Shown: in pieces, positions 21,863 through 53,406 of the stretch
Numbering within the stretch: position 1 is the stretch's first letter
Layout of the letters: each line of letters opens with the position of its first letter
DNA from: Nitrospirota bacterium
GTDB taxonomy: Bacteria > Nitrospirota > UBA9217
Direction: 5' to 3'
DNA: 64,000 bases
Assembly (NCBI GenBank): GCA_963751455.1
Contig: CAVVUN010000002.1
Location: 384,001 to 448,000, forward strand
The notes under the pieces: generated by a model
Seen by the model: the letters and a program-made list of their open reading frames with translations, nothing else
Told to the model about the DNA's origin: nothing
Database searches by the model: none
Position numbers and translations under genes: made by a program

Positions 21863-22057
21863 AGAAAACGGCAGACCACGTCCGCATAACCGTACTACCC
21901 GGGGCACTAAAAATAATTTAGTGCCTTTTTTGTTTCTCCATACGTCCTCTTCCAGCCCCTCGCTGTTCCATATCCGTTTACGCAGCTGAAATTTTCTGTT
22001 ATAATCCGTCAATGTTCCGGTTTTTTTAGAACGTATCTTCACTGTTTGGAGGCGCTC

Positions 22058-24061
22058 ATGCCGAGAAAAATCGCTGAATTATTATCCTGCCCCTTTGCAG
22101 AAACAGTCACCGGAGCGTTCATGGCCTTCGCAGTGTTAGCCGGCAGCGCCGGAGCAGCCGACGCAGGACTGATCGCGGGGGACCTTAAGAAGCTCAGCCT
22201 GGAAGAGCTTATGAATATCGAGGTGCAGACGGTTTACTCGGCATCGAAATATGAACAGAAGATAACGGAGGCGCCCTCCTCGGTCACGATCATTACATCG
22301 GCGGACATCAGGAAATACGGCTATCGTACACTCGCGGACATTCTGCGCAGCGTCAGAAGCTTCTTTATCACGTATGACCGCAACTATACCTATGTCGGAG
22401 TACGCGGGTTCGGGCGGCCGGGGGACTATAACGGCCGTATTCTGCTGCTGATCGACGGTCACCGCACCAATGACAACATATACGATCAGGCTTTTGTCGG
22501 GACTGAAGGGATTATCGATGTCGATCTCATTGACCGGGTTGAGGTGGTACACGGGCCGGGTTCGTCCCTTTACGGAAACAATGCATTCTTCGCCGTAGTC
22601 AACATCGTTACCAAGCAAGGGCAGGATTTCCAGGGGACGCAACTGTCCGTGGAGGCCGCCCGGTATGATACCTATAAAGGGCGAATCAGTTATGGCAATC
22701 AATTCTCAAATGGCTTCGAAGCGATCGTGTCAGGCACGGGTTACGACAGCAAGGGACAACAATTGTTTTTTGAGGAGCTGGGCGCCGTCGCCAATCAGAC
22801 CGATTATGACCGATATCAGAGCTTCTTTACGAAGACATCTCTCAGGGATTTTGTCTTCGAAGGCGCGTATAATGCGAGAACAAAAGGCATTCCCACGGGC
22901 GCTTTCGAGACCGACTTTAACGACCCGGGCAACAAAACGATCGACGGACACGCATATGGCGATTTAAAATACAGCGTCAACCTCGGCGGTGAGACGAATC
23001 TTACGGCAAGGGTCTATTACGACTATTACTGGTACGAGGGGGATTATATTGCCGGCGGAGTAACACAAAAAGACCTTGGATACGGCAACTGGTGGGGCAG
23101 CGAGGTGAAAATGTCATCCAGGCTTTTCGATACCCACCGTGTTATTATGGGCGTAGAATTAACGGATAATGTGCGCCAAGATCAGAAAAATTTCGATGTG
23201 GCGCCTTATTCACTCAATCTTGATGACCGGAGGAGATCAAGGATTTGGGCCGCTTATCTTCAGGATGAGTTTGAGATCGGAAGAAATATTATCATGAATG
23301 CCGGCGTACGATATGACCGCTACAGTAATTTTGGAGGCACTACGAATCCCCGCCTGGCGCTAATCCACAATCCGACGGAGCGAAGCACCGTCAAGCTGCT
23401 CTATGGAAGCGCTTTCCGTACTCCGAACGTGTTTGAGCTCTATTACTCGACTCCACCCGTGAATGTGCCGAACCCGGACCTCAAACCGGAAAAGATAAAG
23501 ACTTATGAACTGGCATATGAGTACCATCCCGGCAAAGGATTCCGCGTCGGCGCTTCGGGGTTCTATTACCGTATAAAAGACTTGATCAATCAGGTTGATA
23601 CCGCGGCTGGCACCACGTTTGAAAATGTGGACCAGGTGGTTGCACGGGGCGCGGAATTGTCGCTGGCAGGCAGGCGGCAGAACGGGACTGAAGGCAGGTT
23701 CAGCTACACAATCCAGCATACTGAAGACAAACTGACCGGGGAACCGCTCACGAATTCCCCGAGACACCTGGTAAAAGTAAATATTTCCGCGCCTATAGTA
23801 AAAGAAAACGTGTACGGAAGCGTCGAAGAGCAGTACACGAACACGAGGCGGACCGAGGCCGGCCAATCCACGCAGGGTTTTTACTTGACCAACGTGACAC
23901 TGCTGGCCCGGAATTACATCGATCGGCTTGAAGTGTCCGCCAGTATTTATAATCTTCTCGACACCGAATACCGCGATCCCGTTTCTGCCGACCTGCAGCC
24001 GCTTGACACCGTAAGGCAGGACGGACGCACGTACCGGTTGAAAGTAAGTTATTCTTTCTAG
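22058..24061 (+). CDS. TonB-dependent receptor
   Basis: LSLEELMNIEV-SASK, plug IDRVEVVHGPGSSLYG, C-terminal YSF. Confidence 0.92.
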   Translation: MPRKIAELLSCPFAETVTGAFMAFAVLAGSAGAADAGLIAGDLKKLSLEELMNIEVQTVYSASKYEQKITEAPSSVTIITSADIRKYGYRTLADILRSVRSFFITYDRNYTYVGVRGFGRPGDYNGRILLLIDGHRTNDNIYDQAFVGTEGIIDVDLIDRVEVVHGPGSSLYGNNAFFAVVNIVTKQGQDFQGTQLSVEAARYDTYKGRISYGNQFSNGFEAIVSGTGYDSKGQQLFFEELGAVANQTDYDRYQSFFTKTSLRDFVFEGAYNARTKGIPTGAFETDFNDPGNKTIDGHAYGDLKYSVNLGGETNLTARVYYDYYWYEGDYIAGGVTQKDLGYGNWWGSEVKMSSRLFDTHRVIMGVELTDNVRQDQKNFDVAPYSLNLDDRRRSRIWAAYLQDEFEIGRNIIMNAGVRYDRYSNFGGTTNPRLALIHNPTERSTVKLLYGSAFRTPNVFELYYSTPPVNVPNPDLKPEKIKTYELAYEYHPGKGFRVGASGFYYRIKDLINQVDTAAGTTFENVDQVVARGAELSLAGRRQNGTEGRFSYTIQHTEDKLTGEPLTNSPRHLVKVNISAPIVKENVYGSVEEQYTNTRRTEAGQSTQGFYLTNVTLLARNYIDRLEVSASIYNLLDTEYRDPVSADLQPLDTVRQDGRTYRLKVSYSF

Positions 24062-24153
24062 CGAAGATCGAAGCCCCCGGAGCCAGAGCACGGAACCCTG
24101 ATTTCGCCCGTCTCCGGCCGGGATGGAAAAGTGGCAGTGCTCAACAAAAAATC

Positions 24154-24714
24154 ATGAAAGTGTTTATCCGCATCGCCGCATATCTTGTTTTTGCAGCCGC
24201 CCTTGCAACAACAGCGCGACCGGCTTGCGCACAGTCGCAGCCGGGCGAATATGAGGTGAAGGCCGCATTCCTGTACAATTTTTTGCCCTTCGTCGAATGG
24301 CCCGCTTCCCCCGGGCGCTTAGTACGGTCACTTCGGGTATGCATTCTCGGAGTGAGCCTCGAAGAGGGCCCGTTCGAGGAGTTGGACGGCCAGGAGGTGA
24401 TGGGCAGAAAACTCGAGATCGTTCAACTGGCATCGCTGGCGGATCTCGGCCGCTGCGATGTTCTCTTCATAGGCGCCTCGGAACAAAACAACCTTCCCCG
24501 GATACTTAAAGCCCTTCAGGGGACCAGCATACTCTCCATCGGTGATACCGCCGGCCTTGCCCGCCAGGGCGTCATTATTAATTTTTATGTCGAGCAGAAG
24601 AAGATACGCTTCGAGATCAATGCGGCGGCGGCGCGAAGGGCCGGTCTTACGATCAGTTCCAAGCTCTTGAAACTCGCGGGTTCTGTCTATGGCGCATCGG
24701 GAGCAGGAGAGTAA
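24154..24714 (+). CDS. YfiR (DUF4154) family periplasmic protein
   Basis: EYEVKAAFLYNF..FVEWP, two Cys, FEIN, ISSKLLKLA. Confidence 0.92.
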   Translation: MKVFIRIAAYLVFAAALATTARPACAQSQPGEYEVKAAFLYNFLPFVEWPASPGRLVRSLRVCILGVSLEEGPFEELDGQEVMGRKLEIVQLASLADLGRCDVLFIGASEQNNLPRILKALQGTSILSIGDTAGLARQGVIINFYVEQKKIRFEINAAAARRAGLTISSKLLKLAGSVYGASGAGE

Positions 24715-24715
24715 A

Positions 24716-26209
24716 ATGTCCCGGTTCCACAATCTGTTGCTCAGGCAAAAGCTCATTCTCAGCGGACTGCTCACGGCAGGCATCACCGTTCTGCTGGCCG
24801 GCACAGTCATGTTAGGGACCGAGATCGCGGTTCACCGCGACGAGATGGTAAAGGATCTGACCGTTAAGGCGGAGATCATCGGCAATCAATGCACCGCGGC
24901 GCTGCTGTTCAATGTTCCGAAGGATGCCGAGGAAACGCTGGGCGCTCTTCGGGCCGATCCCGATATAAAGTATGCGGCTGTCTACACCAGGGACGGTACA
25001 TTGTTTGCTTTATACAGCCGTGCGGGAAAAACGGATGCGTGGTTCCCGCAGCGGCCGCTGACCGAGGGGCATCACTTCGGAGTCGATCATATCTCGCTCT
25101 ACCGAGGGATCAAAGTGCGTGACAAGCACATCGGCACGGTCCTCATCTGGGCCGACCTGCGGAAATTTCATTCCCTGCTGTTCATCTACATGGGTGTGGC
25201 CTGTGTTGTCGTTGTTGTTTCGCTCGTCGTAGCCTATATTCTGGTGTCCCGCCTTCAGCGATCCATTACCCGGCCGGTCACAGACCTGGTGGAGATGATG
25301 GGCGACGTATCACGGGACAGGGATTTTTCAGTCCGGGCGCCAGGGACCGGAGAAGATGAACTCGGGTCTCTTGCCCGGGGCTTCAATGAAATGCTTTCCA
25401 CGATCCAGGACCGCGACCGGGAACTCGAAGCCCATCGGCGTAATCTCGAGCGTACCGTCTCCAATTTGGAACGGTCAACGACCGAACTTCAGGAAGCGAA
25501 CAAAAAGCTCCAGGCGCTGGACAGGCTGAAATCGGATTTCATAACCGTGGTGTCCCACGAACTTCGGACGCCGCTCACGGCCATCAAGGCCTTTGTGGAA
25601 ATCATCCTGATTAAGCCGCACATGGCTAATGACCGGAAAACGAAGTTTCTGAACACCATTAACACGGAAAGCGACCGGCTTGCACGTTTGATCAATGATC
25701 TTCTTGATCTTTCGCGGATCGAATCCGGCGAGACGGTCCGTCGTCACGAAAAAGTCAGCCTGAACGATATAATCCGGAATTCCGTCGCGTGCATTGTGCC
25801 GCTCGCGGAAAACAAACAGCACAGCGTTGTCACGGAGATTGAACCGGAGCTTCCCCCCATATGGGGAGACCGGGACGGTCTCGTTCAGGTTATGACGAAC
25901 ATCCTTTCAAATGCCGTGAAATTTACCCCGAACGGCGGCAGCATTCATGTCTCTGTCCGTCGGGATAACGGGCACATCGCAGTTTCCGTTACTGATAACG
26001 GCGCCGGCATTCCTGAAGAGGATATCGAAGTCATTTTCGACAAGTTCCAGCGATCGGGTGACCAACTGACGAGCACGGTCGAAGGTTCAGGGCTCGGTCT
26101 TTCCATCGCCAAAAAAATCATAGAGCTGCATGGCGGGGCAATCTGGGCGCAGAGCAAGTACGGCGCAGGGAGCACGTTCACGTTCAAACTGCCGCTTTTG
26201 GGGGCCTGA
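24716..26209 (+). CDS. Sensor histidine kinase (YfiN-like periplasmic sensor, HAMP, HisKA, HATPase)
   Basis: AALLF..DAEETL sensor, DELGSLARGFN HAMP, SHELRTPL, NAVKFT, GSGLGL. Confidence 0.92.
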   Translation: MSRFHNLLLRQKLILSGLLTAGITVLLAGTVMLGTEIAVHRDEMVKDLTVKAEIIGNQCTAALLFNVPKDAEETLGALRADPDIKYAAVYTRDGTLFALYSRAGKTDAWFPQRPLTEGHHFGVDHISLYRGIKVRDKHIGTVLIWADLRKFHSLLFIYMGVACVVVVVSLVVAYILVSRLQRSITRPVTDLVEMMGDVSRDRDFSVRAPGTGEDELGSLARGFNEMLSTIQDRDRELEAHRRNLERTVSNLERSTTELQEANKKLQALDRLKSDFITVVSHELRTPLTAIKAFVEIILIKPHMANDRKTKFLNTINTESDRLARLINDLLDLSRIESGETVRRHEKVSLNDIIRNSVACIVPLAENKQHSVVTEIEPELPPIWGDRDGLVQVMTNILSNAVKFTPNGGSIHVSVRRDNGHIAVSVTDNGAGIPEEDIEVIFDKFQRSGDQLTSTVEGSGLGLSIAKKIIELHGGAIWAQSKYGAGSTFTFKLPLLGA

Positions 26210-44596: not shown

Positions 44597-45931
44597 CTAC
44601 CCGGCCTGACGACTGCTTTGCACAGCCTGGTACAAGCGCTGAACCAGGGCCTGATTGTAGCCATGGGATGTCATGTTGGCAGTAACCCTTCCTCTGATGT
44701 GAAGGCCGAGGAGGTAGAGGTCGCCGATTATGTCCAGTATTTTATGGCGCACGAATTCGTCGGGGTAACGGAGTTCGGTGTTGATGACCTTGCCATCGTA
44801 CATGATGATGTGAGAATGGAGGTAACCACCTCCGACCTTTCCAAGCTTCTGGGCCATTTCGATATTTTCAAACGTGTTAAAGGAGCGGGCAGGGGCTATC
44901 TCCTTTGCAAAAGAACTTTTTTCGGGATTGAATGTAAGGGTCTGTTCGCCTATGGGTGCAGGGTAATCGACCCTCATTGATACCTTGAACCCTTCAAAGG
45001 GCTCGGCATACAGATGCTTTTCATGCCTGTCCTCGTTTCCAACCGCTATCTTCTGGCGGATGACAGCAACCCTGGCGTAGGCGGACTGTTTCTCAACCCC
45101 TGCTTCTTCGATGAGATCGCAAAAATCCTTGGCGGAGCCGTCTATGTTCGGGATCTCTTCATCGACTTTTATAAGAGCGTTCGTTATGCCGTACATGGAA
45201 AGAACCGCCATCAGGTGTTCAATGGTGCGCACGCGCCGCCTGCCGTTGTCCAGCGTGGTGGAGTTCGCAGAGAAGGTCTTTGACGAGGCAGTCTGGGAAT
45301 AGTCCTCAACAGAGGTGATAAGTCCACGGATGGTTTGACCGTCAAGAGTCTGAAAGACAATCCCTTCATTGGTCCCGAGGGGGCTCAGGATGACACCTGT
45401 ATTTCGGCCGCTCAAAAGACCAATGCCGTTAAGGACCACATTCCCTCTGAGGGTGCGCTGACGTTGTGGGGAATCCACTACTTCAACGAGGCCGGGAGGT
45501 ATCGAAAGATCGGTGTTGACTATCTCAAGCCGCGTATCCGAGGGCAGGGTGCCCGCGCCGGTCCCTGAAGGCCGGTGCTTCAGGGCAGACTTCACCTTGT
45601 CGAGTAAAACCTCCAGGTGCAGCGGTTTTTCCAAAAAATCATAGGCGCCGGCCTTGATGGCGGCAACCGCCGCATCGATGCCGGCATGTCCGCTCATCAT
45701 GATGATAGGGAGTGCGGGAAATCGGTCATGCAGACGTTTCAGGAGCTGCATGCCGTCTATGCCGGGAAGCCAGATATCCAGCAGGACAAGAGAAGGCTCC
45801 AGTGTATCGAGCTTCTGCCAAAGGCTCTCCGCATCCGGAAATGAGACGGCCTCATACCCCTCGTCCTTTAGAATGCTCTCTACTGTGGAACAGATGGAAG
45901 CCTCGTCGTCTACAATACAGATAGGTTTCAT
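44597..45931 (-). CDS. lpxC: Receiver domain fused to UDP-3-O-acyl-GlcNAc deacetylase LpxC
   Basis: REC: VDDE, LLDIWLPG, SGH, AYDFLEKP; LpxC: QRTL, TIEHLMA, EIAPARSF, HKILDIIGDL, SH. Confidence 0.9.
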   Translation of the reverse strand: MKPICIVDDEASICSTVESILKDEGYEAVSFPDAESLWQKLDTLEPSLVLLDIWLPGIDGMQLLKRLHDRFPALPIIMMSGHAGIDAAVAAIKAGAYDFLEKPLHLEVLLDKVKSALKHRPSGTGAGTLPSDTRLEIVNTDLSIPPGLVEVVDSPQRQRTLRGNVVLNGIGLLSGRNTGVILSPLGTNEGIVFQTLDGQTIRGLITSVEDYSQTASSKTFSANSTTLDNGRRRVRTIEHLMAVLSMYGITNALIKVDEEIPNIDGSAKDFCDLIEEAGVEKQSAYARVAVIRQKIAVGNEDRHEKHLYAEPFEGFKVSMRVDYPAPIGEQTLTFNPEKSSFAKEIAPARSFNTFENIEMAQKLGKVGGGYLHSHIIMYDGKVINTELRYPDEFVRHKILDIIGDLYLLGLHIRGRVTANMTSHGYNQALVQRLYQAVQSSRQAG

Positions 45932-45964: not shown

Positions 45965-46189
45965 TTAATTAGGGTAATATAGGGTAGGACAATGCAGGGC
46001 GTTTGTCAAGAACATGCTGTGCGGTTGTCTCGAACGGATAACAGCTCCTGATATTTCTTCATTAGTGAACCGGGCATGATTGATATAGTCTCCGGCATCA
46101 ATAATTGCATCGATCTGAGCTATTTTTTGATTTCCTTGAGCATAATTAGCCAGCAAGAACCAGGCATCGCTAAATTTGTAGACAGCCAT
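45965..46189 (-). CDS. Hypothetical protein, probably a truncated cassette ORF
   Basis: ATG 12 nt after a degenerate attC core; no recognisable family. Confidence 0.45.
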   Translation of the reverse strand: MAVYKFSDAWFLLANYAQGNQKIAQIDAIIDAGDYINHARFTNEEISGAVIRSRQPHSMFLTNALHCPTLYYPN

Positions 46190-46262: not shown

Positions 46263-46562
46263 TTAGCCGTGCGATGCTTCGGCATGTAACTTCAAACCGA
46301 GAGCGCCAACGACTTTCAGAATGGTATCGAAGCCGGGACTGCGGTCACCCGAAAGCGCCTTGTAGAGACTCTCGCGGGAAAGGCCAGCATCCCGCGCAAC
46401 TTGCGCCATACCCTTGGCACGGGCTATATCGCCAAGCGCTTTTGCTATGAACGCTGCGTCACCATTGGCCTCTTCAAGACATGCTTCAAGGTATGCTGCC
46501 ATTTCCTCCGGAGTACGGAGATGTTCGGCAACATCGTATCGAGTAGTTTTGGTTTTTCTCAT
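46263..46562 (-). CDS. Addiction module antidote (HTH antitoxin)
   Basis: YDVAEHLRTPEEMAAYLEA, ALGDIARAKGM, GLSRESLYKALS. Confidence 0.93.
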   Translation of the reverse strand: MRKTKTTRYDVAEHLRTPEEMAAYLEACLEEANGDAAFIAKALGDIARAKGMAQVARDAGLSRESLYKALSGDRSPGFDTILKVVGALGLKLHAEASHG

Positions 46563-46571
46563 TGTTCCCTC

Positions 46572-46862
46572 CTACAGATTTCGTGCGAGGCTCAATGCCT
46601 TTTTGATATCGGCAGCTTGCGTGCGCTTGTCGCCACCAGCCAACAAAATGATCAATTCGCGTCCGCGCATCGTGTAGTGGATACGGTAACCAGGACCGTA
46701 ATCAATACGCAATTCAGATACGCCCTCGCCGACCGGACTGACATCCCCAGGATTTCCCGCCGCAAGACGTTCGACCCTGGCCAACACTTTCGCACGTGCT
46801 CGAATGTCGCGCAGACCATCGAGCCACCGGACATACGTTTCTGTTTTACGAATCTCGTACAG
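46572..46862 (-). CDS. Addiction module killer (RelE/ParE-like toxin), apparent CTG start
   Basis: Frame extends to (L)YEIRKTETYVRWLDGLRD; GNPGD, GVSELRIDYGPGYR, GGDKRTQ. Confidence 0.88.
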   Translation of the reverse strand: MYEIRKTETYVRWLDGLRDIRARAKVLARVERLAAGNPGDVSPVGEGVSELRIDYGPGYRIHYTMRGRELIILLAGGDKRTQAADIKKALSLARNL

Positions 46863-46920: not shown

Positions 46921-47283
46921 CGGACCACGCTAAAGTTCTGGTTTTCAAATGATATCGTTCCAATAATAGGCATTTTCAAGGCTTAAATCCATCTTTTCAT
47001 GCCCCAAAATCGTACGCACAGGCCATAGCGTTTTTTAGCTTCAAAAAGCCATTGCAGCCAAAGCCGGCGATCCTTGTCAAACTTCAGCAAAAATTCCTTC
47101 TTATGACAGCGGTGCGTGATATGCCAAACATTACCGGGAATGTAATGCCGATTTGCCCGTGGCATCTTGCTTCTCTCATTAAAGCGTTCATTTTCCATCA
47201 AAAACAGCTTTCTAAGGTTAAAAATCAATCCGTTTTTTTTCAAGATTACTTTAGTTATAAGATATTTAGCTTGGTCCGACCCC
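46921..47283 (-). mobile_element. Internally deleted Y1/HUH (RAYT-like) transposase element
   Basis: MPRANRHYIPGNVWHITHRCH.. (47165) joined to a 3' end repeated at 51037-51126; end TGGTCCGACCCC. Confidence 0.8.
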
Positions 47284-50174: not shown

Positions 50175-51018
50175 GGGGTCAAATCTTTCATGTTGACAGA
50201 TTTCCCTCTAATCTAGCCAATAGCGCTCGAACCTTTATGTCTTTATTCACTTTTTCATATAATCGCTTTCGCTCCTGGCTGACCGTGACATAGTCAACTG
50301 CAAATATCTGCCCGATCTGCGGACCTTTTAGTCCTCCTGCCCGGTACAGCAATTCCATTACGATTCGACGTAAGTCACCTTTTTCGATCTTGATGGCTTC
50401 GATATCCTTACCTGTTTCTTTTTTGACTTCTTTAAAAACCTCTTCTGTTGACCTATGACGATATATCTCACCTACTGCCGGCCGCTCCCGGTCATTGGCT
50501 GCCTCTATGTAATTCTCCTTCACCCATGCAATAAACCCCTCTCCCCCCAGAATGCTTTGCCCAATCATGCTTTCTTTAAGCTCTGACTCTTGGGTCATCT
50601 CTGCATAGATCCGCTTCTTATATTCTTTTCGACCCCGATACGTATCTCCACCGTATTCTCCTAGCACCATGGAGTAATCAACGTACCATTCCTTCTTTCT
50701 CGTACTTAAAAAGCCTGGAAGGCTGCTCCACCGATAACGAATAAGATATTTGATTTTCTCCGGTTCCGAAAGTTTTTTCATGGCTTTTATTTTAACCGGA
50801 TTCAAGTGAATGTAGCGGGACAGAACGGAAAGATATTCGTTTCTCTCAACAAGAACGCTCTTGTACCTGCCTTGGTACAGGTGTCCTACGCGGTCGTGGC
50901 GTCGATTGTAATAACCAGTATAGGTTATATTGAACTTGCGCATGAATTCGGAAAGGTTGGCTTTTGGTGTTTCGAGAAGCAGATGGAAATGGTTGGACAT
51001 AAAAACGTAACTGTAAGG
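50175..51018 (-). mobile_element. 5'-truncated Y1/HUH (RAYT-like) transposase with C-terminal HTH
   Basis: YVFMSNHFHLLL HUH, GHLYQGRYKS, RYIHLNPV, YRWSS; end GGGGTCAAATCTT. Confidence 0.85.
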
Positions 51019-51572: not shown

Positions 51573-53406
51573 GTGCGCCTGAAAGTGCGCAAAGTCAGAG
51601 GGGTGCAAGTCCCCTTCAGGTAGACGTTCACCTGCCTGTAACCGACCGTAACTGCGTCGTCGTGAGACGGGGTGGAGAGCAACGGAAGGTGAACCGTCAG
51701 TCCGTAGGATAACGAAATCGATTCGGCCGGTTGTAACGGCGAGCCTGCTGAGGAATGGCGAAGCCCGGACTCTTCGGAAGAAGAGAAGCCTGTCACGCTG
51801 ATGAGCGTGTTAAAGCGATGACAGGGAGCAACAGGTGGTTGGATACGGAACGATGGGAAGTCATTGCACATGAATCAGGGATATCTGTTCCGGCGAGTGA
51901 CCGTGAACAGAAGTCAGAACCTCCATACGAGCGATGAAGCGCTTGTAATGAGCGTGGAGCAAAGGGAGGCAGGAAGGTAGATGAGCAAAGACCATACAGA
52001 GGGAAAGAAACCGACTTCAGTGGAGAATACGCCTAAACCAGTCGGAGAAACAAAAGCCCAACAATGGGCATGGGTGGAACCCACGGTATGGACGGAGCGC
52101 ATGCTGACGGCCCTCGGCAACGGGGTGAAAGGAGGCAGATGGTATAGTTTGATGGATAAGGTACACTCCCCAGGCAATCTCCAAGCCGCGTGGGCGCGAG
52201 TGCGCGCCAACGGTGGAGCAGCAGGAGTGGACCGCCAAAGCATCTCGGCATTTCAAACCAACGCAGAGAAGCATCTGGACGAACTCGAAGAACGCTTAAA
52301 AGGGAACAGGTACCAAACCCAAGCAGTCAAGCGAGTATGGATACCCAAGCCCGGCAGCACCGAAAAGCGTCCGCTCGGCATTCCGGTCGTCAAAGACCGG
52401 ATCGTCCAGACAGCGCTCAGAAACGTCATCGAACCGATATACGAGAACATCTTCGCTGAACAGAGCTACGGCTTTCGACCGGGGCGCGGCTGCAAAGATG
52501 CGCTCCGGCGCGTAGACGAACTTTTGAAGACAGGCTCCACGTGGGTTGTGGACGCTGACATCAAGAGCTACTTTGACAGCATACCCCATGACAAACTCAT
52601 GCGGGAAGTCGAAGAACAGGTGGCGGATGGAAAGGTGCTGGAACTGATAGCCGGATACCTGAAACAGGGGATCATGGACGGACTCACCGAGTGGGAGCCG
52701 GACAAGGGAACTCCGCAGGGCGCGGTCATCAGTCCTCTCCTGGCCAACATATACCTGAATAAAATCGATCATGCGATGCGGGCCAAAGGTTACGAGATGG
52801 TCAGATACGCCGACGATTTCGTCATCCTTTGTCGCGGTGAAGCCGAAGCGCAGCAGGCGCTCGCCACAGTCAGGGACCTTATCGAAGAACGAGGTCTTAC
52901 GCTTCATCCGGAGAAAACCCGGATAGCCGATGCCAAAGAGCGAGGAGGTTTCGACTTTCTCGGATATCACTTCGAGCGCGGCATGCGGTGGCCGCGTAAG
53001 AAGAGTCTCAACAAGCTTAAAGACACTCTTCGCAAGAAGACGATGCGGAAATCGGGCGTGGATATGGCGACCATCATTAAGGACGTTAACAAAAGCCTAC
53101 GAGGTTGGTTTGAATACTTCAAGCAAAGTCACAGGACGACGTTTCCACGAATAGACAGTTGGCTGCGCATGAGATTGCGGAGCATTCTACGGAAGCGTCA
53201 GAAGCGAAGAGGAAGAGGCCGGGGCGCAGATCATCAACGATGGCCGAATGCCTACTTTAGCACTCAAGGACTGTTCACTCTTACAACAGCCCATGAGATA
53301 GCTCGTCAGTCCCGTTGAGGGGCACTGCCGACTGGAGAGCCGGATGCGGGAGATCCGCACGTCCGGTTCGGAGGGAGGGGAGGCCGCAAGCCTTCCCTAC
53401 CCCTAT
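51573..53406 (+). mobile_element. Group II intron (non-C class, AGC triad), inner member of a twintron
   Basis: 5' GTGCG; DV GAGAGCCGGATGCGGGAGATCCGCACGTCCGGTTCGG; 3' CCCTACCCCTAT. Confidence 0.9.
51981..53318 (+). CDS. ltrA: Group II intron reverse transcriptase/maturase, no endonuclease domain
   Basis: GAAGVD, RPLGIP, SYGFRPGR, GTPQG, YADD, FDFLG. Confidence 0.95.
   Translation: MSKDHTEGKKPTSVENTPKPVGETKAQQWAWVEPTVWTERMLTALGNGVKGGRWYSLMDKVHSPGNLQAAWARVRANGGAAGVDRQSISAFQTNAEKHLDELEERLKGNRYQTQAVKRVWIPKPGSTEKRPLGIPVVKDRIVQTALRNVIEPIYENIFAEQSYGFRPGRGCKDALRRVDELLKTGSTWVVDADIKSYFDSIPHDKLMREVEEQVADGKVLELIAGYLKQGIMDGLTEWEPDKGTPQGAVISPLLANIYLNKIDHAMRAKGYEMVRYADDFVILCRGEAEAQQALATVRDLIEERGLTLHPEKTRIADAKERGGFDFLGYHFERGMRWPRKKSLNKLKDTLRKKTMRKSGVDMATIIKDVNKSLRGWFEYFKQSHRTTFPRIDSWLRMRLRSILRKRQKRRGRGRGADHQRWPNAYFSTQGLFTLTTAHEIARQSR

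Follow-up and report, generated by a model that had tools for sequence, protein, structure and literature searches.

LpxC commits the cell to making outer-membrane lipid A, and in E. coli it is controlled by proteolysis and by binding partners. In response regulators such as CheB, PleD/WspR, and RpfG the receiver is joined to a catalytic domain and a DNA-binding part is absent, and NtrY is a membrane sensor kinase whose signal is debated. For alphaproteobacteria, two articles (PMC7240162, PMC12444477) report an effect of NtrYX on lpxC and LPS levels, described for R. sphaeroides as indirect and transcriptional. In Desulfovibrio, DVU2931/DVU2934 (Dde_3000/Dde_3003) form a two-component system in which lpxC is the single target of DVU2934, and the kinase mutant up-regulates lpxC from a sigma-54 promoter whose upstream site lies at -101 (PMC3333781, PMC4045070). 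For other organisms, section 10 of a 2025 review of lipid A regulation (PMC12444477) gives only proteolysis, transcription, and localization as modes of LpxC control, and the words "fusion" and "fused" are absent from that review. No LpxC serving as the output of a response regulator was found in the literature searched, and a full-text search of mostly open-access papers, without their supplements, brought up no title or abstract on a REC-LpxC fusion; response-regulator census tables could list such a protein.

The gene described here lies in a window of 64,000 nucleotides (the whole stretch of DNA analyzed) from a Nitrospirota genome. With canonical LpxC (PF03331/TIGR00325; P. aeruginosa, E. 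coli, A. aeolicus) its product has in common the fold and the zinc and catalytic residues, but it adds an N-terminal receiver, a 7-residue insertion, and nine clade-specific substitutions. It resembles the NtrY/NtrX system of R. sphaeroides, C. crescentus, and Brucella in that its receiver is most NtrX-like and related fusions follow ntrY, whereas its output, in contrast to that of NtrX, is an enzyme without an AAA+ or HTH domain. The likeness to the Desulfovibrio system is that canonical lpxC genes here also carry a sigma-54 box and a similar palindrome, but DVU2931/DVU2934 acts on transcription, with regulator and enzyme separate (a comparison by description). Unlike CheB, PleD/WspR, and RpfG, whose outputs are signaling enzymes, the fusion has a core envelope biosynthetic enzyme as its output. 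Judging from sequence, we hold it moderately probable that the protein is an active LpxC with a receiver, that it was acquired horizontally, and that it is switched at Asp52 by an NtrY encoded elsewhere in the genome. If this is true, a receiver on LpxC itself would represent a different control mode for the committed step of outer-membrane synthesis, NtrY would gain a direct enzymatic read-out, and genomes with either or both lpxC copies would provide a natural comparison of transcriptional with post-translational control.

Domains and active site of the fused protein

The REC-LpxC fusion gene (44597..45931, minus strand) is an open reading frame of 444 codons without internal stop, and its 444-aa product was analyzed by profiles, an AlphaFold2 model, and Foldseek. 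An earlier note on this DNA had read it as a single ORF with an NtrC/NtrX-like receiver and a whole LpxC, and this is borne out by translation, Pfam, and NCBIfam. Pfam Response_reg matches residues 4-113 (E 1.6e-29) and Pfam LpxC (PF03331) residues 158-434, over profile positions 1-267 of 268 (E 3.2e-74), and the protein passes the TIGR00325 lpxC equivalog threshold with 212 bits (cut-off 187). The receiver domain, residues 1-120 (45572..45931, minus strand), is taken to be of the NtrX type from Pfam and NCBIfam, residue conservation, and, with modest support, a receiver tree; NtrX is the best-scoring NCBIfam receiver model, at 109.5 bits against an equivalog cut-off of 600, and the match is confined to the receiver. 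By its architecture the protein is not an NtrX, as the REC-AAA+-HTH arrangement is missing. Pfam places a receiver and a catalytic domain in one chain and finds no DNA-binding domain in it; in build it resembles a response regulator with an enzyme output, and its profile match, fold, and catalytic residues mark it as an LpxC.

The AlphaFold2 model, built from a 34-row alignment, has a mean pLDDT of 87.6 and a pTM of 0.69, with low confidence at residues 122-141 (pLDDT <50) and 216-219. Foldseek against the PDB listed 41 matches, all of them LpxC (41/41; TM by target 0.79-0.92). The linker, residues 121-156 (45464..45571, minus strand), was delimited by column conservation and pLDDT and is about 36 aa long, close to the 35 or so given in the earlier note; its first part is variable, residues 129-140 are partly conserved, and its end is a predicted strand entering LpxC. 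Column conservation across these three parts is 0.54, 0.72, and 0.66 (68 rows), compared with 0.81 for REC and 0.85 for LpxC in the same rows. A complex prediction between REC plus linker (1-142) and the LpxC domain (146-444), made without control runs, scored 0.00 and gave no verdict, and it counts neither for nor against a contact.

The phospho-site residues are intact, as had been claimed: in the 120 listed homologue rows, query included, D8, D9, D52, W54, K102, and P103 are kept in 120/120 and S80 in 119/120; D52 (codon 45776-45778, minus strand) is the predicted phospho-acceptor. For the LpxC deacetylase domain, residues 157-436 (44624..45463, minus strand; profiles and conserved residues), we counted 198 clade rows, made up of 119 homologues and 79 GTDB rows including the query, two sets that overlap. 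E238 and H239 (45215-45220), H396, K397, and D400 (within the H396-D400 stretch at 44732-44746), D404, and H423 (44663-44665), all on the minus strand, are kept in 198/198. The zinc ligands and catalytic His noted earlier are thus present, with the correction that the Glu of the EH pair (E238) is, as we take it, at the catalytic Glu position of LpxC and not a zinc ligand.

Around these residues the active site appears remodeled. In P. aeruginosa LpxC numbering, the substitutions H19L, M62N, G192N, F193T, S210Y, N213S, A214H, and G263S occur in 198/198 clade rows and T190S in 197/198, so that the canonical tunnel/substrate residues H19, T190, G192, F193, S210, and A214 are replaced by L, S, N, T, Y, and H. 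We take these six to be typical rather than strictly defining LpxC positions, and H19, T190, and K261 to have functional-site roles. Alignment to P. aeruginosa LpxC places six of the clade-specific residues (S350, N352, T353, Y370, S373, H374) in a substrate/acyl-tunnel segment, residues 349-376 (44804..44887, minus strand), and L173, N223, and S422 elsewhere in the LpxC domain; the 7-residue insertion lies ahead of the M62 position. Canonical copies of the same genomes keep H19, T190, G192, and G263 (26/26 each) and N213 (25/26), and the other 35 fusions mostly have the usual residues at H19, T190, G192, N213, and G263. In E. coli, S211 and A215 are LpxC contacts of inhibitor tails in docking work (PMC6968633). 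The fixed polar, bulkier residues suggest an altered acyl tunnel in the clade, which may change acyl preference, lower basal activity, or couple to the receiver. Much of the remodeled site is also common to two receiver-less LpxC proteins, P0122 (290 aa) and P0166 (283 aa); the contig of P0122 is only 925 nt long, and this protein may be cut.

Descent of the receiver and the candidate kinase

Within the same genome the best receiver match to the fusion REC is NtrX (41% identity), and the receiver tree joins 3 NtrX receivers and 44 receivers of fusions in one group of modest support (SH-aLRT 80), which also takes in one unrelated long branch. The nearest LpxC relatives outside the clade are REC-AAA+-(HTH)-LpxC proteins of 650-736 aa and other short fusions, and the GAFTGA loop and Walker-B DE are lost in 19/19 of the long fusions. 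Among 80 metagenome loci, the full-length long fusions lie directly after ntrY in 4/4 cases, the remaining 76 loci being partial matches of which 9 were viewed. In G337 a presumably DUF4390-like gene and ntrY precede a 429-aa REC-LpxC that overlaps the ntrY stop by 4 nt, and in G103 ntrY, pyrG, an LptA/C-like gene, FKBP, the fusion, and nusB are all on the same strand; the order lpxC-DUF4390-ntrY-ntrX is found in G081, and lpxC lies upstream of ntrY-ntrX in G058. The DUF4390 profile has no match in the fusion's own genome, but the controls are silent as well. No NtrX-like receiver other than the fusion turned up in the SAR324-type genomes: an NtrY N-terminal match is present in 13/14 (completeness not given), the gene after ntrY, visible in 9/10 fetched regions, is never ntrX, no match reaches NtrX level (best E 1e-103 to 2e-109; controls 4e-145 and 6e-149), and the 25 top enhancer-binding receivers that entered the tree all fall outside its NtrX and fusion group. 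The fusion receiver likely descends from NtrX, with the long fusions as intermediates.

Of 44 fusion-bearing genomes, one (G071) has no ntrY match and another (G102) a weak match only. In the family of this genome ntrY occurs in 51/54 genomes, with or without the fusion, so co-occurrence there is uninformative, and ntrY adjoins this clade in none of the Nitrospirota or Desulfobacterota loci among the 80 best GTDB loci. The present genome has one whole NtrY match, an orphan ntrY (G000:C15:1192653-1194821) on a different contig from the fusion, and an orphan ntrX (G000:C2:107825-109210) unlinked from it. The two genes are also unlinked in six relatives whose ntrY region was fetched (L267-L272), where the gene usually following ntrY is, as named by eye, presumably rhodanese-like and the next one glycosylase-like. 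The genome's own NtrX has Ala two residues past the phospho-Asp, where most receivers of the group have Trp.

As a speculative partner the earlier note had put forward an envelope kinase of the window, a proposal that is not supported. This ORF (24689-26209) scores 210 bits with NCBIfam HK_near_YfiR_like (cut-off 194) and ends a plus-strand run (22046-26209) of a TonB-dependent receptor, a YfiR/HmsC-like DUF4154 protein, and the kinase, beside which no response regulator was seen. Its H-box region is unlike that of the NtrY kinases beside related fusions, and on this evidence it was rejected as the lead partner. When 68 receivers were scored, crudely, over positions that set kinase specificity, the NtrX of this genome did not stand out: it came 5th-6th with 10 positions and 2nd with 5. 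The likely kinase, on sequence evidence, is this genome's unlinked NtrY and not the YfiR-associated kinase of the window.

Distribution, promoters, and origin of the fused gene

A fusion unique to this assembly, which the earlier note had named as the case against it, is not what the searches returned: the 119 best homologues listed (of 6958 matches) are all REC+LpxC, at 83-90% identity, and GTDB contigs hold 331 related stretches, of which the best 80 were taken as loci. These 80 are titled Nitrospirota, Desulfobulbaceae/Desulfocapsaceae, Syntrophobacteraceae, SAR324, and unclassified deltaproteobacteria. Two cultured strains bear the fused clade, Desulfopila sp. IMCC35006 with both copies and Desulfoprunum benzoelyticum DSM 28570, in which the fusion alone was found, and automated annotation already names these fused proteins LpxC. 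A stand-alone second lpxC, which the note had suggested looking for, is present in this genome (G000:C8:109956-110861), encoding a canonical protein of 301 aa with 33% identity to the fused domain. Divergent from its promoter lies a gene for a soluble 238-aa TPR protein (G000:C8:111118-111834, plus strand; L196:3118-3831), which could be a LapB-like partner.

Among 54 family genomes at least 85% complete, both types are whole in 17, only canonical lpxC is whole in 19 and only the fused type in 14, with just partial matches in 2 and none in 2. Eight of the 14 fused-only genomes are 97-100% complete, and the receiver is in frame in each of the three inspected; frame breaks in the fused gene of G010 and G002 may be assembly errors. 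Tracing 50 of the 80 loci to their genomes gave 50 that bear the fusion (completeness not given, with some overlap with the family survey); in these, canonical lpxC is whole in 25, fragmented in 3, and not found in 22. The pieces lie in L343 (G058:C48), G062:C43, and G087:C16 and may reflect either assembly error or decay of the canonical gene once the fusion had been gained. On the SAR324-type branch the fusion is the sole LpxC found in 14/14 genomes (completeness not given), and lpxA is present in 32/33 genomes tested, including 14/14 of the SAR324 type. Where no other LpxC was found, we infer that the lipid A step is carried out by the fused enzyme, and as the sole LpxC found in genomes with lpxA it would be expected to use the usual product of LpxA.

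In 25 other two-copy genomes, spanning Nitrospirota and Desulfobacterota, the fused domain is 75-88% identical to this one, and the canonical copies are 41-68% identical to the canonical copy of this genome. In LpxC trees the fused domains of both phyla form one tight group (100/100) beside the SAR324-type proteins, and every short and long fusion falls on one side of a 100/99 branch; the trees are unrooted, and the tool flagged a meeting of long branches there. Duplication of the resident lpxC was rejected, grouping of the family's fused and canonical copies having a p-AU of 2e-5. A survey of 301 genomes from the phylum finds the clade in 26/38 of this family and in 1/263 others. The 80 fusion loci have no conserved neighborhood except nusB, which recurs in 12 while every other family recurs in at most 9, and a synteny specific to SAR324. 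Composition gives no sign of transfer, the GC3 of the fused gene (0.62) being typical of the genome, and by this measure the transfer was not recent. Taken together, these data make horizontal acquisition of the fused gene likely; a strongly constrained, slowly evolving protein could also show inflated identities, but this would leave the patchy distribution unexplained. In the sole phylum genome outside the family that carries the clade (G345:C3, L342), the gene immediately upstream of the fusion encodes a histidine kinase other than NtrY.

The two kinds of lpxC also have different upstream regions. A putative sigma-70-type promoter of the fusion, TTGACA-17 nt-TACCCT (45981..46009, minus strand), is common to Nitrospirota copies: the pattern TTGACA-17-TAnnnT, picked after inspection, occurs in 24/76 fused upstream regions (shuffle mean 0.1) and in 22/30 loci titled Nitrospirae/Nitrospirota. 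The predictions of a generic promoter scanner did not include the 45981-46009 site. A sigma-54 box (at least 6 of 9 positions, within 110 nt) precedes 22/26 canonical genes (shuffle mean 0.1) and 0/76 fused ones, and an exact GTGK-N8-MCAC palindrome is found in 18/26 canonical (shuffle mean 0.2) and 0/76 fused upstream regions. This genome's canonical lpxC has a 9/9 sigma-54 box and one-mismatch palindromes upstream; one-mismatch palindromes upstream of fusions, this one included, are at chance level. The palindrome upstream of canonical lpxC is a putative NtrX binding site.

Readings of the fusion and its surroundings in the window

Direct two-component control of LpxC, as the earlier note proposed, stays the best reading, on the basis of conservation, ancestry, and gene context. 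Under this reading, the ancestral locus would have been lpxC-DUF4390-ntrY-ntrX, with NtrX controlling lpxC transcription, and an NtrX-LpxC fusion may have arisen from such a locus; its ATPase and HTH would then have decayed as control shifted from promoter to enzyme. The compact REC-LpxC clade would have spread as a one-gene cassette carrying its own promoter, and the NtrY of this genome would have two points of action, transcription of the resident lpxC by way of NtrX and, directly, the fused enzyme. As to the sign, we lean slightly, and as a guess, toward phosphorylation raising activity by lifting a brake imposed by the receiver, the upward direction being carried over from the ancestral sigma-54 activator and from what the kinase mutant of Desulfovibrio shows. 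A wider proposal, in which the fusion plugs into the host NtrY and is displacing sigma-54-driven lpxC in Nitrospirota and Desulfobacterota, with the tunnel being part of the switch or altering lipid A, is tentative and seems to us rather doubtful.

Against direct control, nine normally conserved active-site positions are, by alignment, changed in the clade. It is unlikely, though conceivable, that binding or phosphorylation of the receiver by NtrY sets the location or stability of the enzyme, whether by tethering it to the membrane kinase, by dimerization, or by a handle for proteolysis, or lets it compete with NtrX for NtrY, and leaves catalysis ungated. The low-confidence residues 122-141 and the whole-model pTM of 0.69 would fit this, as would the proteolysis and membrane localization described for LpxC in other bacteria (same section of PMC12444477) and the presence of both NtrX and the fusion in a genome with one whole NtrY match; on the other hand, the linker is near-fixed in length and partly conserved at 129-140 in the clade, which fits a defined geometry, and there is no direct evidence of a degron or tether. 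The remodeled site itself invites the reading that the clade prefers another acyl chain or sugar and that a second copy would, in response to a signal, modify the structure of lipid A and not just its quantity. The tunnel is polar and bulkier (Y370, H374, T353, N352, L173, N223), eight of the substitutions are in 198/198 clade rows and S350 in 197 while canonical copies keep the usual residues, and both copies are kept in 17/54 family and 25/50 fusion-bearing genomes. We nevertheless regard an altered substrate as improbable, since some genomes with lpxA have the fusion as the sole LpxC found, while their close relatives rely on the canonical enzyme.

The receiver might also be a leftover of an ntrX-lpxC fusion on a constitutive LpxC that spreads through its own promoter. 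The ATPase and HTH of the ancestral fusion did decay, and receiver-less P0122 (possibly cut) and P0166 have much of the remodeled site, but all phospho-transfer residues are conserved and receiver conservation (0.81) is about that of the enzyme (0.85), while the adjoining ATPase was lost; a mere passenger is in our estimate very improbable. We give hardly any credence to service by another kinase, for instance the YfiR-associated one at 24689-26209: this kinase has no cognate regulator seen beside it and the specificity-position score did not single out NtrX, yet neighbors other than nusB (12) recur in at most 9/80 fusion loci, and the repeated gene-context links that were found point to ntrY.

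In the window, as the earlier note had stated, neither a kinase nor an lpx gene adjoins the fusion, and its neighbors are unrelated: a toxin-antitoxin-like pair upstream, and downstream a GNAT gene and an unassigned ORF of 129 aa. At 46263-46787 (minus strand), next to the promoter of the fusion on its upstream side, an addiction-module antidote gene (PF21716) is preceded by a 71-aa ORF that we take to be RelE/HigB-like. The fragments at 46983-47243 and 50188-51000 are presumably REP-associated-transposase-like and suggest that this region is rearrangement-prone. Further along, a group II intron (51981-53406, plus strand) is marked by an Rfam Intron_gpII match at 53335-53406 and contains a 445-aa ORF (51981-53318, plus strand) that, named from its motifs, is presumably reverse-transcriptase-like.
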